Shown here piece after piece: positions 9,532-56,061 of a stretch of DNA of 64,000 nt. Location: assembly GCF_049295055.1 (NCBI RefSeq), contig NZ_JBAQQF010000053.1, positions 61,871 through 125,870 on the forward strand, given 5' to 3'. A program made the translations under genes and the position numbers. This stretch comes from Psychrobacter sp. GTDB lineage: Bacteria; Pseudomonadota; Gammaproteobacteria; Pseudomonadales; Moraxellaceae. The notes beneath the pieces were generated by a model. The model searched no databases. It was not told the DNA's origin and worked only from the letters and a program-made list of their open reading frames with translations. Numbering within the stretch: the first letter of the stretch is position 1; each line of letters begins with the position of its first letter.

Positions 9532-10767
9532 ATGTTTATCAAACTATTCTATACCTTGCGTACTTACGGCGTGCCGGTCAGTACCCGTGAGCTACTTGAC
9601 CTAAATGCCGCGCTTGAGCAAGGGCTGATGATGCAGCCAGTTCTCTCATCAAAGCAGGAAGATTCAGCATTGGCTACCTTTGCCAGCCGCGAAGATATGT
9701 ACCGATTAATTCGGCTTTGTATGGTCAAAGACGAGCGCCACTTTGATAAATTTGATCGAGCAATGGCGGATTACTTTGAAGGCGTTGATAGTCTTGATAT
9801 GGATGAGCTTATGTCTAAGCTGACTGACGTCCCTAAAGAGTGGCTCGACTTAAAATTAGATCCTAAAAACCTCACTGAAGAACAGCGTCGTCTGCTCAAA
9901 AAATATGGCTCGCTTGAAGAGTTGATGAAAGCGCTTGAAGAACGTTTAAAAGAGCAAAAAGAGCGTCATCAAGGCGGTAGTAAATGGGTCGGGACTGGCG
10001 GTACGTCGCCATTTGGCGCCTATGGCGATCATCCAGAAGGCGTGCGCGTTGGCGGTGAGTCGCGTAAACGCAGCGCAGCCAAAGTTTGGGAACAGCGTAA
10101 ATACCGCAACCTCGATGACGATAGTCAGCTTGGTACCCGCCAAATTCAGATGGCACTACGCAATTTGCGCCAGTTTGCACGGACGGGCAGTGCTGATGAG
10201 TTAGATATTCATGAGACCATCAAGCGTACTGCGAAAAAAGGTGTGCTCGATATTCATATGCAAGCGGAGCGTCGCAACCGAGTTAAGGTGCTGATGCTGT
10301 TTGATGTTGGCGGTAGTATGGATATCCATGTTGAAGCACTAGAAAAGCTGTTTTCTGCGGCAAAGAATGAATTTAAAACTTTAGAGTTTTTTTACTTTCA
10401 TAACTGTCTGTATGATTATGTTTGGAAAGACAATGAACGTCGCCATAGCGCACCGATGCCGACCTTTGAGCTGCTCAATAAATACGGTCGCGAATATCGC
10501 GTTATCTTCGTCGGTGATGCCTCAATGTCGCCCTATGAGCTTATGACAGTGGGCGGCAGTGTTGAGTATATGAATAATGAAGCGGGTATCGTCTGGCTAA
10601 AACGCATGCTTGCGCATTTTGATAAAGTCGCGTGGCTCAATCCTGAAGATCCAGCGTACTGGCAATATACCCAAACCATCGTTGAGATTAAAAAACTGTT
10701 TGATAATAAGATGTACCCTATGACTTTGCATGGCGTAGAAGAGATGACCAACTATATGGCGCGGTAG
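9532..10767 (+). CDS. VWA-domain protein (CoxE-like partner of the MoxR ATPase)
   Basis: A 411-aa ORF with a MIDAS-like LMLFDVGGSMD and a C-terminal VWA-like fold. Adjacent to the AAA ATPase. Confidence 0.8.
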   Translation: MFIKLFYTLRTYGVPVSTRELLDLNAALEQGLMMQPVLSSKQEDSALATFASREDMYRLIRLCMVKDERHFDKFDRAMADYFEGVDSLDMDELMSKLTDVPKEWLDLKLDPKNLTEEQRRLLKKYGSLEELMKALEERLKEQKERHQGGSKWVGTGGTSPFGAYGDHPEGVRVGGESRKRSAAKVWEQRKYRNLDDDSQLGTRQIQMALRNLRQFARTGSADELDIHETIKRTAKKGVLDIHMQAERRNRVKVLMLFDVGGSMDIHVEALEKLFSAAKNEFKTLEFFYFHNCLYDYVWKDNERRHSAPMPTFELLNKYGREYRVIFVGDASMSPYELMTVGGSVEYMNNEAGIVWLKRMLAHFDKVAWLNPEDPAYWQYTQTIVEIKKLFDNKMYPMTLHGVEEMTNYMAR

Positions 10768-13557: not shown

Positions 13558-13771
13558 AGTAACGCTCAACAATAAGACATGAAAGTTAAAAAACGCACTA
13601 ATTACGAGTAAAAATAAAAGTAACATACTCCAACTATCGATATAGATGATTTGGAAGTAAGCCAGCTTTATCTTAACTTATAATTAACGCGCATATTATA
13701 CGCCTATGATATCACTGCATCGGTGTCATTGGGTAACAGTGTGCTAATGCGGGTTTTGCAGCCCAGTTATT

Positions 13772-14875
13772 TTAAGCTGTAACCTTTACCACTGTTTTTT
13801 TATTATCAATCACGTCAAAGGTAATCTCAACCGGTAAAAACTGTTTTATTAACCAAGCTTGAGTCTCAGTATGCTGACTAATGACGCGTGCAGTAAACTC
13901 ACCGCCACCTGATAAAGCTAAAGGCAGCAGCAACTGGTCGGTTAGATACTCGTCAACTAATGCATCGGTTTTAAACAAGTAACGCTTCACCAAGCCTGCT
14001 AAGCGATTACCCATCTTTTCAGCCGAAGTACGTTTTTCTCCGAGCAAAGTAAATATTTCTTGATGACAGTGTTCGTTATTGTTAGTTTCACCAACTTTAT
14101 GAGTTACTTTTGCGTAGCAAGTATTACCTTCACCGATACCGAGCAGTTTATGGCCTCTTGTGGTAATAAGGGTGTCGTCGATTCCAGATTCAACCAATAC
14201 CGCTTTCGCGCTGGCAAGCTCACGTGTACCAATATCATATTCCAAATTGAGCACACTGGCGACTAGCTCTACGCTCATCATCTCACCACGTTCAATAATT
14301 TTGAAAGGCAACGAGTTAGCACGGCGTAAAAACGGCGTTATCGTTGCTTTGATGGTGCCACCGCCAACGGGCGCGAAGCCTGCTTGTAGACATTCAATAT
14401 CTATTTGCATACCCAACTTAGTAAGCGCAGGAATAAACGCCTGTTGTAAGAAATCTGTGGTTGGTGCCAGTGGATTGTGGGTTCCACCTTTAATCGTTAC
14501 GGTCGATTTTGAATGTTGATTGGTGTTAGCAAAGAGCAGAGCAGGTAATAGCGTTTGTAGCACCAGACTGGTACTGCCAGCCGAGCCAATATCAAAAGTA
14601 TAATCACCTGACTTAATCGTATTTGGCGTAAAGCTAAAACTGCTGCTGCCTAAATCAGCGCCTGACACGTTGGCATCTGATATCGCTTGTGACGCTTGCA
14701 CGCACATTAAATGTTGACGCATTAATCCAGGTTTAGATCGACCAGCACGGATATTGCTAATCTCAATAGGAATGCCCGTCAGCATAGATAGTGATAGGGC
14801 GGTACGGATAATTTGTCCACCGCCTTCGCCTGTGCTGCCGTCGATTTTTAGGGATTTAGTTTTTGATATTGGCAT
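13772..14875 (-). CDS. rtcA: RNA 3'-terminal phosphate cyclase
   Basis: A 367-aa ORF with the RtcA N-terminal signature GSTGEGGGQIIRTALSLSMLTGIPIEISNIRAGRSKPGLMRQHL. Located in the rtc locus. Confidence 0.92.
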   Translation of the reverse strand: MPISKTKSLKIDGSTGEGGGQIIRTALSLSMLTGIPIEISNIRAGRSKPGLMRQHLMCVQASQAISDANVSGADLGSSSFSFTPNTIKSGDYTFDIGSAGSTSLVLQTLLPALLFANTNQHSKSTVTIKGGTHNPLAPTTDFLQQAFIPALTKLGMQIDIECLQAGFAPVGGGTIKATITPFLRRANSLPFKIIERGEMMSVELVASVLNLEYDIGTRELASAKAVLVESGIDDTLITTRGHKLLGIGEGNTCYAKVTHKVGETNNNEHCHQEIFTLLGEKRTSAEKMGNRLAGLVKRYLFKTDALVDEYLTDQLLLPLALSGGGEFTARVISQHTETQAWLIKQFLPVEITFDVIDNKKTVVKVTA

Positions 14876-15084
14876 GATATTAGACTTTCTTATTTTTGGG
14901 GAGGCTTTTAGATTTTTTTAATGATGCTTATCGCATCAGGATAATTAAATAGGTTTTATAAAAATGGAAAGGTTAGAGCGCAATAAAAATAAAATTGAGA
15001 CCGACTGTCATTGTCTGGTGGTAAGGTCTAAATGGTACTTTGTGCCTAGTGAAGTGTATGGGGCATGAGGTGTAAAAAAGACGT

Positions 15085-15190
15085 TTGCCCACAACGCGTG
15101 GCAGCCACTACAGTATATTTTCAACCCCCTGTTGTGGAAGTAAGGGGTCTGACACTCGCCCAGTCGGTTCCAAACGGGTAGTCTGCTTAC
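15085..15190 (-). ncRNA. candidate structured RNA or processing element in the spacer between the DIP1984-like gene and rtcA (strand assumed from operon context)
   Basis: A G+C-rich core sits inside an otherwise A+T-rich 360-nt spacer and contains several complementary segments. These are CCACAAC 15089-15095 / GTTGTGG 15131-15137, ACCCCCT 15124-15130 / AGGGGT 15143-15148, and GCAG..CTAC 15101-15111 / GTAG.CTGC 15178-15186. Some are mutually exclusive. I recognise no known RNA family. Confidence 0.25.
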
Positions 15191-15235: not shown

Positions 15236-15694
15236 TTATTCTATCAGGTCAATTTGCCAGTTATTAGCTTGAATAACAATGTTAATCTTGCGAAGTTTCA
15301 TGGCGATGTCATCGGCTTGCTTTTGTAATCCTGACACAGAAACTATAATATTCCATTTAATTTCACGATGGCTATAACGATCTGCTTCAGTCTGTGTCGC
15401 TTCAATGGCATCCACCAATAGCTTATGACGCATCTCTAATGTATCGCGCTCTACCAATAGCGCCAGCATTGACTGACCTTTATCGGTCTGAGCAATGGCA
15501 TTAGTACGATGAATGCGCTCAATCAAAACACTTAGCTCCGTAATGATTTGACTGGCATCAATCATCAGCGTATTAGGATCTTCGCTTGGTGTATCGCCCT
15601 CTTGAACTTTGACATTGTTACGAATACGACCTTTAATCTGTGCTAGCTTTTTTTGCATATCGCTACGGATAAGTAGGGCTTCTGCGAGTTTCAT
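15236..15694 (-). CDS. DIP1984-family (septicolysin-like) protein
   Basis: A 152-aa ORF. MKLAEALLIRSDMQKKL...VKVQEGDTPSEDP...RTN...LLVERD...REIKW...NWQIDL matches my recollection of the DIP1984-family consensus. It starts 29 nt downstream of the HEPN gene. Confidence 0.7.
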   Translation of the reverse strand: MKLAEALLIRSDMQKKLAQIKGRIRNNVKVQEGDTPSEDPNTLMIDASQIITELSVLIERIHRTNAIAQTDKGQSMLALLVERDTLEMRHKLLVDAIEATQTEADRYSHREIKWNIIVSVSGLQKQADDIAMKLRKINIVIQANNWQIDLIE

Positions 15695-15723
15695 TTTGGT
15701 TCTCTCTAAATGTTGATTTCATT

Positions 15724-17355
15724 TTAAATATATATTTTTCGCTCAATAAACTTGCTTTGAATTAAATTATCAGACATATCTTCAAGAGCTTCTTTCTCAG
15801 CTTTGATCCTAACTGCAAAGACGAAAGAGAAAATAGCTGAACGTGTCAATTGTAAAACATGCTCTGCGCTTTCAACAAATTCAGATTCTGGAATAAAAAC
15901 TGGTTCTTCGTAATAAGCTAATGAATTTTCAATACTTTCAGGTTTTTCATTCTCGTAAACAAATACAAAACTATGTTCCAATGCATTCCGCCACTGCTTA
16001 TAAAAACTAAGTTCACCTTCTAGGTTATGATTCAAACCGCAAGCTATGCTATATAAACCAATCAAGCCTTCATTATTATAAGCTTCGAACTTTTGAAGTC
16101 TGTCTTCGTCTTCAAGTTCCCAAAAAGTATGGAAATACGAAGGCCTGACTTTTCCTTTCTTAGTTTTAAGTTGTAAGTCAAACAACAAACCAATAGCGTT
16201 ACCTATTTTATCTAGTACGCCAAAGCAAATCCTAAAAGCGGTACGAAGCTTTTCGATATTTGTTCCTAGTAACTCATTGTCATGCAACTCTGCATAGCAA
16301 GCATCATCGTCTATATTGTTATCTCTCTTAGCAACCTTATATTCGTATAACATTAGCCTAGCAAGTCCAAATTCCGATTTAAGCCTATTTAGTACCTTTT
16401 GCATTAGTAATATGAAATCTCCAGAAATCGCTCTAATAGACATTGGGATATTTAAATTATCACTTGCACTTCCGTAGCATTTGCAATATAAACCATGCTC
16501 ACTAAGACTTAGGAAATTATCCAAACACCATTTTCTAAATTCTGATAAGGATTGGTATTCTTGCTCATCTAAGTGGCTATCATCTTCTATAGCTACTCCC
16601 ATATCTAAACAATCTTTTTCGATATCACTATCTATTTTCTCGGCTCTTATGAGATAAGATTTTGCCCACTGAGGTGGTAATTTGTTAGATTTGCTAGCAT
16701 TCCTAAAACCTAAAGCAATTTCTCTACCTTGTTTAATTGAAGAAGAGTTATTTATTCGACTTATCACACTCAAACACTCACTACGATTTGTCCAAACTTG
16801 TGGAATGTCTAAATTCATTGCGATAACTTGATCATACAAGGCTAACGCCTCGGGAAATCTATATTGCTTTTGCAGGTTTATAGCTAAATTAACAAGATAT
16901 TCAGGTTGAGAGTCTACATCCTGCTTTCTACAAGACAAAATTGCTTTAAAAAATAGAGAGCTTACCTCTGCAAGTTGCTTTATTAGTTCTACATCGGTAT
17001 CAAGTTGATCTCCAGATGAACTTTGAATTAAGTTGCTTTTTGCATTTCCCAGATTGTAGTAATAACTATCCCGAGTTAAAATGTTTGCAAAAACTTCGGA
17101 CTCCATTATGTCAATACCTAGCTCAGATGCTTTATTATTTGACGCCATGTTGCCTAAATCAACGAACAACATTCCCAGCTTGTAAAGTGTGTAAGAGTAT
17201 TGAGTATCATCTTTGTTTACTTCCTCACTCAAAATTGTCTCTATATCTAAACATAGTTTAAAACTTTGATTAAAGTTTCCTAGGTCAATCATTTTTGAAG
17301 CACTTTCAAGTTGAAAATTAATATTTTCAAAATTAATTTGCTCGTGACTTTTCAT
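15724..17355 (-). CDS. helical-repeat (TPR-like) protein with C-terminal HEPN-type domain (LA2681-like); predicted RNase
   Basis: The ORF track gives 15724..17358, which starts at TTG. ATG at 17355 has an AAGGAT RBS 8 nt upstream. The HEPN R-x4-H motif WRNALEHSF is encoded at 15990-15973. The N-terminal half is predicted to be helical repeats. Sampled 60-nt lines give about 32-35% G+C, versus about 55% in rtcB. Confidence 0.7.
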   Translation of the reverse strand: MKSHEQINFENINFQLESASKMIDLGNFNQSFKLCLDIETILSEEVNKDDTQYSYTLYKLGMLFVDLGNMASNNKASELGIDIMESEVFANILTRDSYYYNLGNAKSNLIQSSSGDQLDTDVELIKQLAEVSSLFFKAILSCRKQDVDSQPEYLVNLAINLQKQYRFPEALALYDQVIAMNLDIPQVWTNRSECLSVISRINNSSSIKQGREIALGFRNASKSNKLPPQWAKSYLIRAEKIDSDIEKDCLDMGVAIEDDSHLDEQEYQSLSEFRKWCLDNFLSLSEHGLYCKCYGSASDNLNIPMSIRAISGDFILLMQKVLNRLKSEFGLARLMLYEYKVAKRDNNIDDDACYAELHDNELLGTNIEKLRTAFRICFGVLDKIGNAIGLLFDLQLKTKKGKVRPSYFHTFWELEDEDRLQKFEAYNNEGLIGLYSIACGLNHNLEGELSFYKQWRNALEHSFVFVYENEKPESIENSLAYYEEPVFIPESEFVESAEHVLQLTRSAIFSFVFAVRIKAEKEALEDMSDNLIQSKFIERKIYI

Positions 17356-17396
17356 CAAAATATCCTTATTTTCTTAGAATATATTTTATGTCTAAC

Positions 17397-18629
17397 TTAG
17401 CCTTTAACACAAACCACTTGCCTCAAAGTATGTACGATCTCTACCAAATCACTCTGCGCTTTCATCACGTCGTCAATATTCTTATACGCTGCTGGGATTT
17501 CATCAATCACGTCTACATCTTTGCGGCATTCTACGCCCTCCGTTTGGGCAATTTGATCGGCGACCGTGAAGACTTTTTTGGCTTCAGTACGTGACATCAC
17601 TCGACCTGCGCCATGTGAGCAAGAACAAAACGATTCTTCGTTACCTTTGCCGCGGACGATAAAGGATTTCGCGCCCATCGACCCCGGAATGATACCGTAT
17701 TCACCAACGCGGGCACGTACTGCGCCTTTGCGAGTGACAAAGATTTCCTCACCGTAATGCTCTTCTTTTTCCACATAGTTGTGGTGACAGTTCACCGCTT
17801 TTACGGCGGCATTAAACGGCTTGTTAATGATTTGACGTAGCGCCTTGATGGCTTTTTCCATCATGATCTCACGGTTCTTAAAGGCGAATCGCTGCGCCCA
17901 ACCGACCGCAAACCAGTAATCATCAAAATGCTCTGTGCCTTCCGCAAAGTAGGCCAAATCTTTGTCAGGCAGGTTGATAAACCACTTGCGCATATCTTCA
18001 CGTGCCAGCTCAATAAAGTAGCGACCAATAGCATTACCGACGCCACGAGAGCCTGAGTGCAGCATAATCCATACTTGATTGGTCTCATCAAGACATACTT
18101 CCACGAAGTGATTGCCTGTGCCAAGCGTACCCAAATGATTGAGATTGTTGGTGTTTTTAAGCTTAGGATGCTTTTGAGTCAGATAATTAAAATCATTGAC
18201 CAGCGTTCCCCAACCATCCGTTACACTATTATCAGGGTTTGACCACGCACCAACATCACGACGTGAACCGCGTCCACGAGTTTTACTACGTCCATGAGGA
18301 ATCGCTTTTTCAAGTTCGGTACGTAGACCCAGCAAATTATCAGGCAAATCATTCGCGGTCAGCGTCGTTTGTACGGCCATCATCCCGCAACCGATATCGA
18401 CACCGACCGCCGCTGGGATAATGGCTTCTTTGGTCGGCAGCACCGTACCGATAGTCGCGCCAATCCCGACATGGACATCAGGCATTACCGCGAGCCACTT
18501 ATAAATAAACGGCATTTGCGAGGCTTTAATCAATTGGTTATGAGCTTTAGGATCGACAGGTACACCCTTTGTCCAAAGTCGAATAGGGGTTCCGCCGTCC
18601 TGAATAATATTATGAGTGGTAGGTTGCAT
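17397..18629 (-). CDS. rtcB: RNA-splicing ligase RtcB
   Basis: Motifs PDVHVGIG, GVDIGCGM, GTGNHFVE, HSGSRGVGN, NCHHNY and SCSHGAGR. I prefer ATG at 18629 (MQPTTHN), with AGGAAAG upstream, over the ORF-track start at 18665. Confidence 0.95.
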   Translation of the reverse strand: MQPTTHNIIQDGGTPIRLWTKGVPVDPKAHNQLIKASQMPFIYKWLAVMPDVHVGIGATIGTVLPTKEAIIPAAVGVDIGCGMMAVQTTLTANDLPDNLLGLRTELEKAIPHGRSKTRGRGSRRDVGAWSNPDNSVTDGWGTLVNDFNYLTQKHPKLKNTNNLNHLGTLGTGNHFVEVCLDETNQVWIMLHSGSRGVGNAIGRYFIELAREDMRKWFINLPDKDLAYFAEGTEHFDDYWFAVGWAQRFAFKNREIMMEKAIKALRQIINKPFNAAVKAVNCHHNYVEKEEHYGEEIFVTRKGAVRARVGEYGIIPGSMGAKSFIVRGKGNEESFCSCSHGAGRVMSRTEAKKVFTVADQIAQTEGVECRKDVDVIDEIPAAYKNIDDVMKAQSDLVEIVHTLRQVVCVKG

Positions 18630-18688
18630 CGCACTTTCCTTATATTTAAAAATATAATTTATCATTGAATAATCTGTACTTTATATAA

Positions 18689-18705
18689 TGCTAGGAGTAT
18701 GCCAA
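18689..18705 (-). promoter_or_regulatory. sigma-54 (-24/-12) promoter of the rtcB operon
   Basis: The minus strand reads TTGGCATACTCCTAGCAT, i.e. TGGCAT-N5-TAGCA against the consensus TGGCAC-N5-TTGCW, with correct GG-N10-GC spacing. It lies about 60 nt upstream of the rtcB ATG, and the cognate activator gene rtcR is adjacent. Confidence 0.65.
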
Positions 18706-19009: not shown

Positions 19010-19420
19010 ATGGGTGCTGAAAGTTATCGGAGTGTCACAAAATACCAAGAAGATACCGAGCAAGCATTAAGCGATTTACAACAGCAAATATTTGCAGCAG
19101 GAGAATATCGCTACAGTGAGGATGCTGAAGCTGGTGATATCGATGAGGCACGCGAGTTTGCAGCCGAGGACGGTACGAAATCTGTGTTAGATATCTATGG
19201 GATTAGTGATGAACCTACAATGGCTCATGCAGCGTTAGTGACCGATGATGAAGCCAGATCATGGTTTGGTTGTACGGAAATCGATGAAAAAGATATACAT
19301 AAGATTGATGATTGCAGCGATTTTTGGACAAGTATGGATAGGGGCGAGGCGCGCTATTTAATTTTATATAAAGATGGTAAGCCTTCGCAGTATTATTTTG
19401 CTGGGCTATCTTTTGATTAA
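19010..19420 (+). CDS. hypothetical acidic 136-aa protein immediately upstream of rtcR
   Basis: ATG at 19010 is preceded by AAGGAGAT (18999-19006). The longer ORF-track start (18890) lacks an RBS and adds an A+T-rich leader. The protein is MGAESYRSVTKYQEDTEQAL...ARYLILYKDGKPSQYYFAGLSFD. I recognise no family. Confidence 0.6.
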   Translation: MGAESYRSVTKYQEDTEQALSDLQQQIFAAGEYRYSEDAEAGDIDEAREFAAEDGTKSVLDIYGISDEPTMAHAALVTDDEARSWFGCTEIDEKDIHKIDDCSDFWTSMDRGEARYLILYKDGKPSQYYFAGLSFD

Positions 19421-19456: not shown

Positions 19457-21154
19457 ATGCGTAAAAATAAAACCGCCGTCATCGGATTTCTCGGAACCAC
19501 GCTAGATAATGGCTTTAATGATAAACGTTGGCAGCGTTGGCGACCGACGGTTAGCCTAGGTTTGCATGATGAGTTACTGGTTGATGAGCTGCATATCTTA
19601 TATAGCACCCGTGATAAGCGGTTGTTTAAGATAATAGTTGATGATATTGCACAGGTCAGTCCGCAGACTAAAGTGATTGGTCACCATGTCTCGTTATCTA
19701 GTCCGTGGGATTTTGCGGAAGTCTATGCTGAGCTATATGACTTTGCGGCAGCGTTTGATTTTCAAGATAATACGGACTATTTGCTGCATCTGACTACGGG
19801 CACGCATGTAGCACAGATTTGCTGGTTTTTATTGGTAGAGGCGGGCTTTATTCCAGCAGATTTGCTGCAGACGTCTCCTTGTCCGAGACCAGATCAAGCG
19901 GATCCGCAAGGTCGCTATCAAGTCATAGATTTGGACGTGTCGCGATATGATGGTTTACGTGCACGCTTTGAGGCGGAAAAACAGCAGCATTGGCAAACCT
20001 TGCAAGCCAATCTGGTTACCCAAAATGCTGCTTATCAACAGCTCATATCCGATATCGAAAAGGTGGCTACGCGCTCAACTGCGCCGATACTATTGATGGG
20101 TGCAACAGGGGCTGGCAAGTCGCAATTGGCTAGCCAAATTTACGCGCTAAAGAAAGCCAAAGCGGATAACTCCGTTCAAAATAAATATGCGTTAAATAAA
20201 TTTGTCGAAGTCAACTGCGCCACCTTGCGCGGTGATACGGCAATGAGTGTGCTGTTCGGTCATGTCAAAGGCGCATTTACGGGTGCAGCTTCAAATCGTG
20301 ATGGGCTATTAAAATCAGCTGACGGTGGCTTGCTATTCTTAGATGAAATCGGTGAATTGGGACTTGATGAGCAAGCGATGTTATTAACCGCATTAGAGGA
20401 GCAGCGCTTTTATCCACTCGGTAGTGATACGTCGATTAACGTCTCGTTTCAGTTGATGGCAGGAACCAATAAAGACTTGCGACGAGCGGTTGCTAATGGC
20501 GAGTTTCGTGCCGATTTATTTGCTCGACTCAATACGTGGACGTTCTTTTTGCCATCGCTGAAAGATCGTCTTGAGGATTTACCCGCAAATATTGATTATG
20601 AGCTGGCACGCCTTGGTAGTGAGCAACAGCAGCAATTTCGCTTTGAGCCAAGCGCACGGCAGTTATACGAAGACTTTGCGATGAGTCGCGAGGCAACATG
20701 GCAAGGAAACTTTCGGGATTTGACCGCCAGTATGATTCGCCTGACCACGCTGGCTGAAAGTAAAGTTATTAGGGTAGAGGATGTGCAAGTAGAGATTGAG
20801 CGTTTGTCCAATCTTTGGGGCTTGCCTGACCATTTTAATAGCATGGCTAATAATAGCCTAAGTAGTTTTAACTCTGACTCTAGTTTAGCGTTAGACAGGC
20901 ATTTAATTGAAACCACAAGTCAGAATACTTTAGATAAATATCTTGATAAAGATATCCTTATGAAGGTTGATACATTCGATGCGGTACAACTGGCCTATGT
21001 CATTGAGGTTTGCATCCAGCATAAGAATCAAGCAGCCGCCGGTCGTTATCTTTATGCTCAAACGCGTGATAAGCTGAAAAGTCCCAATGATAGCGATCGT
21101 TTGCGTAAGTACTTAATGAAGTTTGGGCTTAAGTTTGACGAGCTGATTCGATAA
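19457..21154 (+). CDS. rtcR: sigma-54-dependent transcriptional regulator RtcR (CARF-like N-terminal domain, AAA+ domain, HTH)
   Basis: A 565-aa ORF with an RtcR-type N-terminus (KTAVIGFLGTTLDNGF..RWQRWRPTV). It has Walker A GATGAGKS, the sigma-54 contact loop KGAFTGA, and Walker B LLFLDEIGEL. It is divergent from rtcB. Confidence 0.92.
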   Translation: MRKNKTAVIGFLGTTLDNGFNDKRWQRWRPTVSLGLHDELLVDELHILYSTRDKRLFKIIVDDIAQVSPQTKVIGHHVSLSSPWDFAEVYAELYDFAAAFDFQDNTDYLLHLTTGTHVAQICWFLLVEAGFIPADLLQTSPCPRPDQADPQGRYQVIDLDVSRYDGLRARFEAEKQQHWQTLQANLVTQNAAYQQLISDIEKVATRSTAPILLMGATGAGKSQLASQIYALKKAKADNSVQNKYALNKFVEVNCATLRGDTAMSVLFGHVKGAFTGAASNRDGLLKSADGGLLFLDEIGELGLDEQAMLLTALEEQRFYPLGSDTSINVSFQLMAGTNKDLRRAVANGEFRADLFARLNTWTFFLPSLKDRLEDLPANIDYELARLGSEQQQQFRFEPSARQLYEDFAMSREATWQGNFRDLTASMIRLTTLAESKVIRVEDVQVEIERLSNLWGLPDHFNSMANNSLSSFNSDSSLALDRHLIETTSQNTLDKYLDKDILMKVDTFDAVQLAYVIEVCIQHKNQAAAGRYLYAQTRDKLKSPNDSDRLRKYLMKFGLKFDELIR

Positions 21155-55716: not shown

Positions 55717-56061
55717 TTATCTCATATGTTGAAGTAAATAAGCATTTACTGATTCTGTTAACCATTTAATTAATTCGTCATCCATATATTGATATTCGTC
55801 AGGAATATCTAGAACAATCAGTCTTTTATTATTAAGTTGGTCGCGGAAATGGTCAGTGATATAACTTTTATGCTTATTTTCCATCACAAATATGATGTCT
55901 GACCAATTAATATCTATCGAATTTATAAGTTTACGAGCTGATTGGCTAATACCAGCAGAGCGAACATTTAAATTAGGATGGTCTTGGTAAATTCTCTCAG
56001 CAGTTGGACTACGCCATTGGTTTTTGCTGCAAACAAACAATAAATTCATTAAAGCCTTCAT
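55717..56061 (-). CDS. low-molecular-weight phosphotyrosine phosphatase-family protein (short form)
   Basis: A 114-aa ORF with the C-x5-R(S) P-loop, VCSKNQWRS. Confidence 0.7.
   Translation of the reverse strand: MKALMNLLFVCSKNQWRSPTAERIYQDHPNLNVRSAGISQSARKLINSIDINWSDIIFVMENKHKSYITDHFRDQLNNKRLIVLDIPDEYQYMDDELIKWLTESVNAYLLQHMR

Follow-up and report, generated by a model that had tools for sequence, protein, structure and literature searches.

What is a gene for a predicted ribonuclease (RNase), conspicuously rich in A and T, doing in the middle of an operon for RNA repair? The question is raised by a 64,000-nucleotide (nt) stretch of DNA from a Psychrobacter sp., referred to here as the window. 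In its rtc operon, rtcB is followed by a gene for a protein with tetratricopeptide repeats (TPRs) and a HEPN domain, a DIP1984-family gene, a structured RNA, and rtcA, while rtcR is divergent. RtcB ligates RNA ends carrying a cyclic phosphate and a 5'-OH, and RtcA makes cyclic phosphates. A reading of the sequence alone had taken the abrupt fall in G+C content (GC) at the HEPN gene for the mark of a recent horizontal insertion. Comparison with related operons leads to a different answer: the HEPN gene, a member of the LA2681 family, is cargo in the first of two hypervariable slots of a Moraxellaceae rtc operon of the RtcR/sigma-54 type, and its presence there is old. The reading favored as a whole, to which a probability of roughly 0.55 is given, is that of an old, exchangeable, RtcR-induced TPR-HEPN RNase that would feed both RtcR and RtcB.

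How constant is the region around the gene? A scan with RtcB, taking one genome per species, gave 80 loci, onto which the window proteins were mapped (individual loci are cited by L number). The Psychrobacter and Acinetobacter form of the operon consists of rtcB, a variable stretch (slot 1), the DIP1984-family gene, a second variable stretch (slot 2), and rtcA. What follows rtcB differs by genome, with open reading frames (ORFs) of 148, 166, 191, 219, 265, and 326 amino acids (aa) among the cargo and with arrays of seven ORFs in L011 and larger still in L164. Few of the slot 1 genes can be annotated, these being a weak SUKH-like match, DUF7684, and PF18867, a HEPN family distinct from LA2681 (in Acinetobacter sp. 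ANC 4805). The recurrent 148-aa family is confined to slot 1 in every context inspected. Slot 2, where occupied (L011, 14655-15842; L164, 12131-14947; L173, 10368-10895; L017, 10484-12052), carries an AAA ATPase, ORFs of 140 to 242 aa of no assigned family, or, in Acinetobacter rongchengensis, an LA2681 HEPN gene. Nearly all slot 1 cargo is more AT-rich than its own locus.

The limits of the cassette in slot 1 are exact. When the window was aligned by blastn with L007, L008, L011, L013, L169, and L170, homology to these operons with other cargo stopped at 17394-17401 and resumed at 15704-15717, which is 10 to 23 nt before the DIP1984 ATG. These breakpoints and the alternative cargo of the sister operons bear out the earlier notion of an accessory cassette inside an rtcB...rtcA operon. 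Over about 15 kb to either side, L169 and the window share 91 to 94% identity, yet a pair of ORFs of 139 and 148 aa replaces the HEPN gene at the same breakpoints as in the other sister operons. Judging by this backbone with other cargo, the recent event is cassette replacement. The identity profile between the two is a mosaic, ranging from 61 to 100% per 150 nt, and a clean recombination tract beside the cassette was not seen.

How might such cassettes move? Several operons retain pieces of the DIP1984 gene. Downstream of its HEPN gene, L164 has this same junction, the initial 29 codons of DIP1984 (9633-9737), new cargo, and, last, a complete DIP1984 gene. In L165 (about 9664-9690), L171 (about 2195-2225), and L009, the HEPN gene is followed by the first 9 to 10 DIP1984 codons and then by a deletion, which in these three loci and in L087 takes out the DIP1984 gene together with the RNA downstream. 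The remnants are footprints of cassette stacking (L164) and of module deletion (L165, L009, L171, and L087), and they point to recombination in the conserved flanks rather than to site-specific integration. Gain, loss, and exchange of cassettes appear to run through homologous recombination, for which the 3' end of rtcB and the 5' end of the DIP1984 gene provide the conserved flanks. An integron gene cassette was considered and rejected, because the spacers of 41 and 29 nt leave no room for attC and the breakpoints lie within conserved genes. The features of the operon are collected in Table 1.

Table 1. Features of the rtc operon and its HEPN gene in the window
Feature	Position	Strand	Basis or remarks
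LA2681-family TPR-HEPN gene	15724..17355	-	543 aa; likely start ATG 17355; mechanical ORF start TTG 17358
HEPN_LA2681 domain	15802..16398	-	aa 320-518; Pfam PF18733
RNALEH, the Rx4H HEPN motif	15973..15990	-	R456, N457, E460, H461
N-terminal TPR-like alpha-solenoid	16600..17331	-	about aa 9-252; AlphaFold2 (AF2) helix pairs, Foldseek, profile search
Replaceable cassette (slot 1): HEPN gene and two short spacers	15708..17396	-	blastn breakpoints
Slot 2	14876..14981	-	empty in the window; cargo in other genomes
Conserved structured RNA	14982..15174	-	directly 3' of DIP1984 gene, ends in T-run; alignment, RNAalifold, covariance model
DIP1984-family / DUF6847 gene	15236..15694	-	Pfam PF20935, E 6e-47; NCBIfam NF038048, E 3e-49
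rtcB, RNA ligase	17397..18629	-	Pfam RtcB, E 6e-131; stop codon 17397-17399
rtcA, RNA 3'-phosphate cyclase	13772..14875	-	Pfam RTC, E 2e-74
rtcR, CARF-type RtcR and sigma-54 AAA+ activator	19457..21154	+	divergent; Pfam RtcR, E 6e-71; Sigma54_activat, E 1.5e-48
Sigma-54-type promoter element TGGCAT-N5-TAGCA	18689..18704	-	upstream of rtcB; GG-N10-GC spacing; read from sequence
Terminator-like hairpin	13689..13703	-	just past rtcA; sole one on operon strand

Just how distinct is the gene in composition? Its GC over the whole length is 0.336 (0.439, 0.297, and 0.272 at the first, second, and third codon positions, or GC1, GC2, and GC3), against means of 0.437 (standard deviation [SD], 0.031) for GC and 0.399 (SD, 0.042) for GC3 among 50 ORFs of at least 100 aa in the window; the deviations amount to z scores of about -3.3 and about -3.0. 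When all 64 kb were scanned, 1,635-bp segments with a GC of 0.336 or less began at only 63 positions (15689-15766), all centered on the HEPN gene, and the lowest segment that did not overlap it had a GC of 0.375. In its choice of synonymous codons the gene is the most divergent of 38 ORFs (Kullback-Leibler divergence of 0.169, against a mean of 0.063 and an SD of 0.026; z about 4), and the composition of the protein is shifted as well, with FYMINK residues at 0.329 versus 0.261 and GARP residues at 0.158 versus 0.247. Because the compositional change-points, at about 15688 and about 17486, coincide with the breakpoints in homology to the sister operons, the AT-rich island can be equated with the gene borders. 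The sequence-only reading was thus right to describe a sharp island that drops at these borders, and the difference from the neighbors stands when whole genes are counted (rtcB, 0.470; DIP1984-like gene, 0.410; rtcA, 0.439). Its sampled values for the neighbors had the direction of the contrast right, but not the size (about 0.55 for rtcB and about 0.48 for the DIP1984-like gene). The gaps of 38 nt on the rtcB side and 29 nt on the DIP1984 side were correct, the former being 41 nt if the gene starts at ATG 17355; an AAGGA ribosome-binding site (RBS) lies 8 nt ahead of this ATG.

The window has only one other strongly AT-rich ORF, at 55717-56061 on the minus strand (GC, 0.319; 114 aa), between the genes for endonuclease III and metK. 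Only its first 40 or so residues match low-molecular-weight phosphotyrosine phosphatase, and it may be a truncated or fast-evolving gene.

Does such an island date the arrival of the gene? Among 34 LA2681 loci compared, in hosts whose flanking GC spans 0.28 to 0.68, the LA2681 gene lies below the GC of its flanks in 30 (mean difference, -0.074; Wilcoxon p 2e-7), the extremes being 0.384 versus 0.589 and 0.338 versus 0.542. Since AT-richness is family-wide, low GC is no clock, and the compositional island is the signature of the LA2681 family and of slot cargo generally.

The orthologues do speak to age. They occupy the same slot in P. aquimaris (73% aa identity), P. piscatorii (70%), and further Psychrobacter lineages (67 to 88%), and L164 has one of 54% identity within its larger array. 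The P. aquimaris gene is equally AT-rich (GC, 0.332; GC3, 0.271). Between it and the window gene, nonsynonymous divergence (dN) is 0.160 and synonymous divergence (dS) about 2.1, which is saturated; the ratio dN/dS of 0.07 indicates purifying selection on the HEPN gene. In the same comparison, the flanks gave a dN of 0.156 and a dS of 1.5 for rtcA and a dS of 1.3 for rtcB. The closest allele, that of L171, is 86.7% identical in the HEPN gene, 85.3% in the adjacent end of rtcB, and 77% in rtcA, and since these identities are in step, the gene co-diverges with its flanks. In neighbor-joining (NJ) trees, the HEPN proteins from Psychrobacter fall into one clade, at the base of which the L164 copy branches off, and trees of rtcB, rtcA, rtcR, and the flanks intermix HEPN-bearing operons with others; the trees were computed from saturated sites, carry no support values, and are indicative only.

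What remains of the idea that an AT-rich gene came lately from a low-GC donor and has kept its composition unameliorated? It can point to the border-exact sharpness of the island and to L169, the closest backbone, which lacks the gene, so that recombinational re-import from another Psychrobacter is possible. It is largely refuted all the same, and is considered improbable, given orthologues of equal GC and saturated dS that other species carry in this slot, a nearest allele that diverges in step with its flanks, Psychrobacter copies that form one deep clade reaching down to 54% identity, and a low GC that the family shows regardless of host. For a late arrival from a distant low-GC donor there is no support. 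Of the horizontal insertion of a sensor-plus-RNase gene proposed from the sequence, what holds is a TPR-HEPN cassette of foreign type in an rtc operon; what falls is its recency. The comparison of orthologous loci is likewise two-sided, since L169 and others lack the gene and P. aquimaris, P. piscatorii, and further Psychrobacter have it. An old capture followed by repeated replacement is the simplest reading. On this reading, the cassette reached the rtc operon of Psychrobacter ahead of the divergence of the species sampled, and purifying selection has kept it since.

Where does the family live otherwise? LA2681 proteins are widespread in Proteobacteria and have a constant architecture of about 510 to 550 aa. 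The family numbers about 115 to 259 clusters among 1.84 billion representatives (115 at 50% identity and E<=1e-30). Outside rtc loci, it is a solo gene in mobile or defense-type variable regions. Of the contexts with enough flank, 29 are free of any rtc link (27 from metagenomes, besides Pseudomonas L004 and Vibrio L006); all of these show a solo gene, as expected if the family is foreign to the rtc operon in general, and no recurrent partner was found among their 96 neighboring ORFs. These neighbors include resolvases, transposases, TIR proteins, DUF4145, a restriction enzyme, ArdC, and an integron-cassette protein. The Pseudomonas gene (L004) lies beside a PAAR-Ntox44 toxin pair, an integrase, a transposase, and a pyocin-immunity gene, and the gene of Vibrio lentus stands alone. 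Carriage by plasmids or phages was rejected as an explanation, there being 4 distant matches on plasmids and none in the phage collection.

LA2681 genes have nevertheless joined rtc loci independently in two further lineages. In A. rongchengensis, a 44%-identical copy sits in slot 2, between the DIP1984-linked RNA and rtcA. In a Sphingobium metagenome-assembled genome (L038, 3747-5327, minus strand), a TPR-HEPN gene of the LA2681 family (E 2e-65; motif RNALEH; GC, 0.575 versus 0.618 for the locus) is present at full length; it shares its strand with rtcR and follows it downstream at a distance of about 410 nt. Because these juxtapositions are independent despite the rarity of the family, they argue for a possible functional affinity between LA2681 and rtc, as read from the counted juxtapositions. 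A further case, in which a HEPN gene lies 5.5 kb from a convergent PRTase-rtcA pair with a restriction-modification system between them (L139), was judged mere proximity.

What kind of protein is it? LA2681 is a described HEPN family, which includes fusion to TPRs and an Rx4-6H motif (Anantharaman et al. 2013, PMC3710099). The window protein is 100% identical to an NCBI entry from Psychrobacter sp. named "LA2681 family HEPN domain-containing protein," and its C-terminal part matches the Pfam model at E 8e-34 within the whole protein and 1.4e-34 as a domain alone (117.3 and 119.7 bits; cut-off, 27). Going by its sequence, then, it belongs to the TPR-HEPN proteins of the LA2681 family, and its Rx4H motif is intact. 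The four motif residues listed in Table 1 are invariant in an alignment of 44 homologues that reaches down to 38% identity, and the strict invariance of the catalytic R, N, and H argues for a probable enzymatic function. The full-length AF2 model is all-alpha (pLDDT, 82.7; pTM, 0.87). Its N-terminal half finds KLC1/CTPR solenoids with Foldseek and consensus TPR in a PDB profile search (E 3e-21). Both parts of the domain assignment made from the sequence, TPR-like helical repeats at the N terminus and a HEPN domain with RNALEH at nt 15990-15973 at the C terminus, are thereby upheld.

HEPN membership follows from the sequence profile and the motif, not from the fold search. The C-terminal domain modeled alone is all-alpha with long helices (pLDDT, 80.3). 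A Foldseek search of this model against BFVD gave nothing significant, and the full-length model retrieved TPR proteins only. Sequence and profile searches found no solved relatives of the HEPN part, and no further HEPN-clan Pfam families matched the domain at E<=10. A biochemically characterized LA2681 member was not found in the literature consulted.

When would the gene be expressed? Its co-transcription with the rtc operon is inferred from the predicted sigma-54 element, the gaps of 41 and 29 nt, and a terminator-like hairpin that occurs only past rtcA; between the promoter and the rtcA stop codon, no terminator-like site was found on the operon strand. With neither a promoter nor a terminator of its own, the HEPN gene would be transcribed only upon RtcR activation. 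The likely start of rtcB is ATG 18629, after the RBS AAGGAAAG, which gives 410 aa, the same as in the orthologues; the longest rtcB ORF (17397-18665, 422 aa) probably overcalls the start.

Several known types of system were tried on this arrangement. A HEPN-MNT (HepT/MntA) toxin-antitoxin system of type II/VII was rejected, as the neighbors are rtcB and the DIP1984-family gene and no MNT antitoxin gene occurs beside the HEPN gene or among the neighbors of the 29 solo loci. CoCoNuT identity was rejected as well, there being no McrB, McrC, or CnuH components in the operon, and so was a known anti-phage defense system, for want of a PADLOC v2 match.

The operon also encodes an RNA. Directly after the DIP1984 gene lies a noncoding element of 185 to 205 nt with four helices, conserved in Psychrobacter and Acinetobacter. 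In an alignment of 20 copies, 94% of cells pair, against 30 to 40% when the partners are slid, and double changes occur in 14 of 22 pairs. A covariance model built from the copies matched 25 sites in 1.33 Mb of the loci compared (88 sources). The matches are exactly the loci with a DIP1984-family gene, with none elsewhere in the 1.33 Mb, and they include loci outside the model set and two from Undibacterium in which the genes are ordered differently; the window RNA scores 163.9 bits. With the added copies, 16 of 22 pairs covary, in an alignment that is fitted to the model. Searches with Rfam and ARAGORN gave no match, and identity as an Rfam family, tRNA, or tmRNA was rejected. Tandem diverged copies of the RNA occur in L013 (2675-2879 and 3398-3582), L015 (10615-10818 and 10844-11047), and L016 (9908-10110 and 10136-10337). 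The RNA may explain a protein family that has so far only been named by NCBI and Pfam.

Is it a Y RNA? Bacterial Y RNAs carry the motif GNCGAAN0-1G (PMC4201824), which the invariant internal loop G(G/A)GCGA(G/A)U resembles and which the L011 copy fits exactly. A bacterial Y RNA is, however, 80 to 130 nt long and has an adjacent Ro60 gene; the element here is longer, and no Ro60 gene is found in the window. Ro60/TROVE (rsr) genes occur in some Moraxellaceae rtc loci (L011, 3246-4880; L164, 961-2745; L015; L016; L019) and are absent from the window, L001, L007, L008, and L009, so the rsr module is variable within the genus.

How might these parts work together? tRNA fragments that carry cyclic-phosphate ends activate the CARF domain of RtcR (PMC7790460). 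The HEPN protein would therefore be made after initial RNA damage, when fragments terminating in a 2',3'-cyclic phosphate activate RtcR. The TPR domain may keep the RNase off until it binds a trigger, for example a phage or toxin-related protein; alternatively, gating could come from the protein reaching the concentration needed for dimerization. HEPN RNases leave 2',3'-cyclic phosphate and 5'-OH ends, which are the ends that RtcB joins (PMC11090510), and by analogy the HEPN domain would cut RNA in a metal-free reaction to yield the same ends. Such ends would serve both as inducer of RtcR, giving positive feedback, and as substrate of RtcB, giving a reset. The operon could in this way amplify an RNA-damage alarm into translation arrest, from which co-expressed RtcB and RtcA would permit recovery. 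For CoCoNuT loci associated with RtcR, Bell et al. (2024, PMC11090510) proposed a comparable feedback, which runs from cleavage by HEPN via cyclic-phosphate RNA and RtcR to increased transcription.

This proposal has several points to answer. Besides the indicative character of the trees, about 58 of 60 metagenomic LA2681 loci are not near rtc, and only a Psychrobacter-type contig is rtc-linked. Foldseek against PDB returned no significant HEPN match for the C-terminal model; its best target-normalized TM scores are to HEPN toxins (7ae8, about 0.52, and HepT) and to Csm6, all at E>1. The HEPN protein had no PADLOC v2 match at E<=0.01, and a defense role is by analogy only. The other slot cargo (SUKH-like, DUF7684, many small proteins) is unrelated, and the slot may simply tolerate insertions. 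The last point leads to the strongest rival, which is possible though clearly less probable than the circuit just described: the gene could be a passive passenger, a self-contained defense or conflict gene in a recombination-permissive slot that borrows transcription and has no tie to RNA repair. Heterogeneous cargo, solo LA2681 genes elsewhere without a conserved partner, and lineages that have lost the DIP1984 gene and RNA and still keep the HEPN gene are all as such a passenger would have them. Less easily reconciled with it are three independent juxtapositions of LA2681 with rtc and another HEPN family in the same slot, the family being rare, as well as long-term retention in one position and the predicted lack of an own promoter, which would tie expression to RtcR.

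Could the tie to RtcB be closer still? The HEPN protein might cut a defined RNA that RtcB then religates, as in splicing by Ire1 (KEN/HEPN) and RtcB or in end-healing; tRNA, tmRNA, mRNA, or the operon's own structured RNA would be candidate targets. HEPN chemistry gives exactly the ends that RtcB joins (PMC11090510), the gene comes immediately after rtcB, and a conserved RNA is encoded in the same operon. That a dedicated partnership is involved is nonetheless quite unlikely, as solo LA2681 genes lack a neighboring ligase, operons from which the RNA and DIP1984 gene have been deleted still keep the HEPN gene, and unrelated genes can fill the slot. Slightly less probable again is that the protein does not cut at all and offers protection by binding and neutralizing an incoming RNase toxin or phage factor. 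TPR domains bind proteins, sister slots hold SUKH-like (immunity-type) and other small acidic proteins, and the Pseudomonas gene keeps company with a PAAR-Ntox44 pair and a pyocin-immunity gene; against this stands the strict invariance of the catalytic R, N, and H across the family.

The reading of an RtcR-induced RNase that supplies RtcR and RtcB can be extended, rather doubtfully, to the operon as a whole. The Moraxellaceae rtc operon might be a cassette-exchanging "RNA-damage response island," in which RtcR would sense cyclic-phosphate RNA and call up interchangeable effectors from two slots. The TPR-HEPN cassette would add a self-amplifying, reversible circuit of cleavage and religation, a bacterial counterpart of Ire1-RtcB logic, and the DIP1984 protein and its dedicated RNA would form a further ribonucleoprotein.

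Variation is also seen around rtcR. In the window, an acidic protein of 136 aa with no family match (19010-19420, plus strand; mechanical ORF from 18890) is encoded 36 nt upstream of rtcR and co-oriented with it. It is identical in L169, and a Peptidase_S9 gene is found instead in P. aquimaris and P. piscatorii; because of this swap, the site upstream of rtcR can be counted as the third variable position of the locus. Just downstream of rtcR, P. aquimaris and P. piscatorii (L001, 2311-3662, and L173, 1951-3830) have two genes with weak matches to PT-HINT/Hint_2, domains of polymorphic-toxin type; both genes are absent from the window.

What does the locus add? Neither the LA2681 family nor the notion, in general terms, that rtc operons have accessory genes is new. 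What is new is the placement of a predicted HEPN RNase gene between rtcB and rtcA, in an operon with two hypervariable slots, though Burroughs and Aravind (2016, NAR 44:8525), the likeliest earlier account of such accessory genes, may have mentioned a HEPN or DIP1984-RNA link. Open questions in the field concern the substrates of bacterial RtcB and RtcA and the nucleases that make the cyclic-phosphate RNAs activating RtcR; an operon with its own HEPN nuclease, in which cutting and repair enzymes appear to be induced jointly, is a testable source-and-sink pair for both. The exact breakpoints of the cassette polymorphism in near-identical backbones offer natural isogenic comparisons. For genome scans there is a caution, in that the sharp GC island here reflects membership in an AT-rich mobile family, not insertion age.

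How, finally, does the operon compare with known systems? Its HEPN protein is like the LA2681 family (PF18733, PMC3710099) in its profile match, Rx4-6H motif, and TPR fusion; the 2013 description, however, had no link to RNA repair, whereas the Psychrobacter genes are embedded in an rtcB...rtcA operon. The operons rtcB-rlaP-rtcA of Pseudomonas, with the accessory gene rlaP between rtcB and rtcA (PMC12776372), and rsr-yrlBA-rtcBA-dinJ-yafQ of Salmonella (PMC9879122) are likewise under RtcR/sigma-54 control and have an extra co-oriented gene. The RtcR regulon of Salmonella even includes an RNase toxin pair, dinJ-yafQ (PMC9879122), and in that respect YafQ is akin to the HEPN protein. RlaP, however, belongs to the nucleotidyltransferases, and DinJ-YafQ, encoded downstream of rtcA, is a toxin-antitoxin pair of the classical kind, whereas the accessory gene in the window encodes a predicted HEPN RNase, comes with no antitoxin, and occupies a slot hypervariable among close relatives. 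RtcR-associated CoCoNuT/HEPN superoperons (PMC11090510) also place HEPN RNases under an RtcR-like CARF activator, but CoCoNuT has McrBC and CnuH; the window operon lacks these, and its HEPN gene shares an operon with repair enzymes, which adds a reset arm. Two further systems, PrrC versus T4 Pnkp/Rnl and Ire1(KEN)-RtcB, pair a nuclease of HEPN type with the healing and ligation of RNA ends, PrrC and KEN both belonging to HEPN (PMC3710099). In the case of PrrC and T4, nuclease and ligase are in opposing genomes, and Ire1-RtcB is a eukaryotic stress pathway; in the window, both lie in one bacterial operon.

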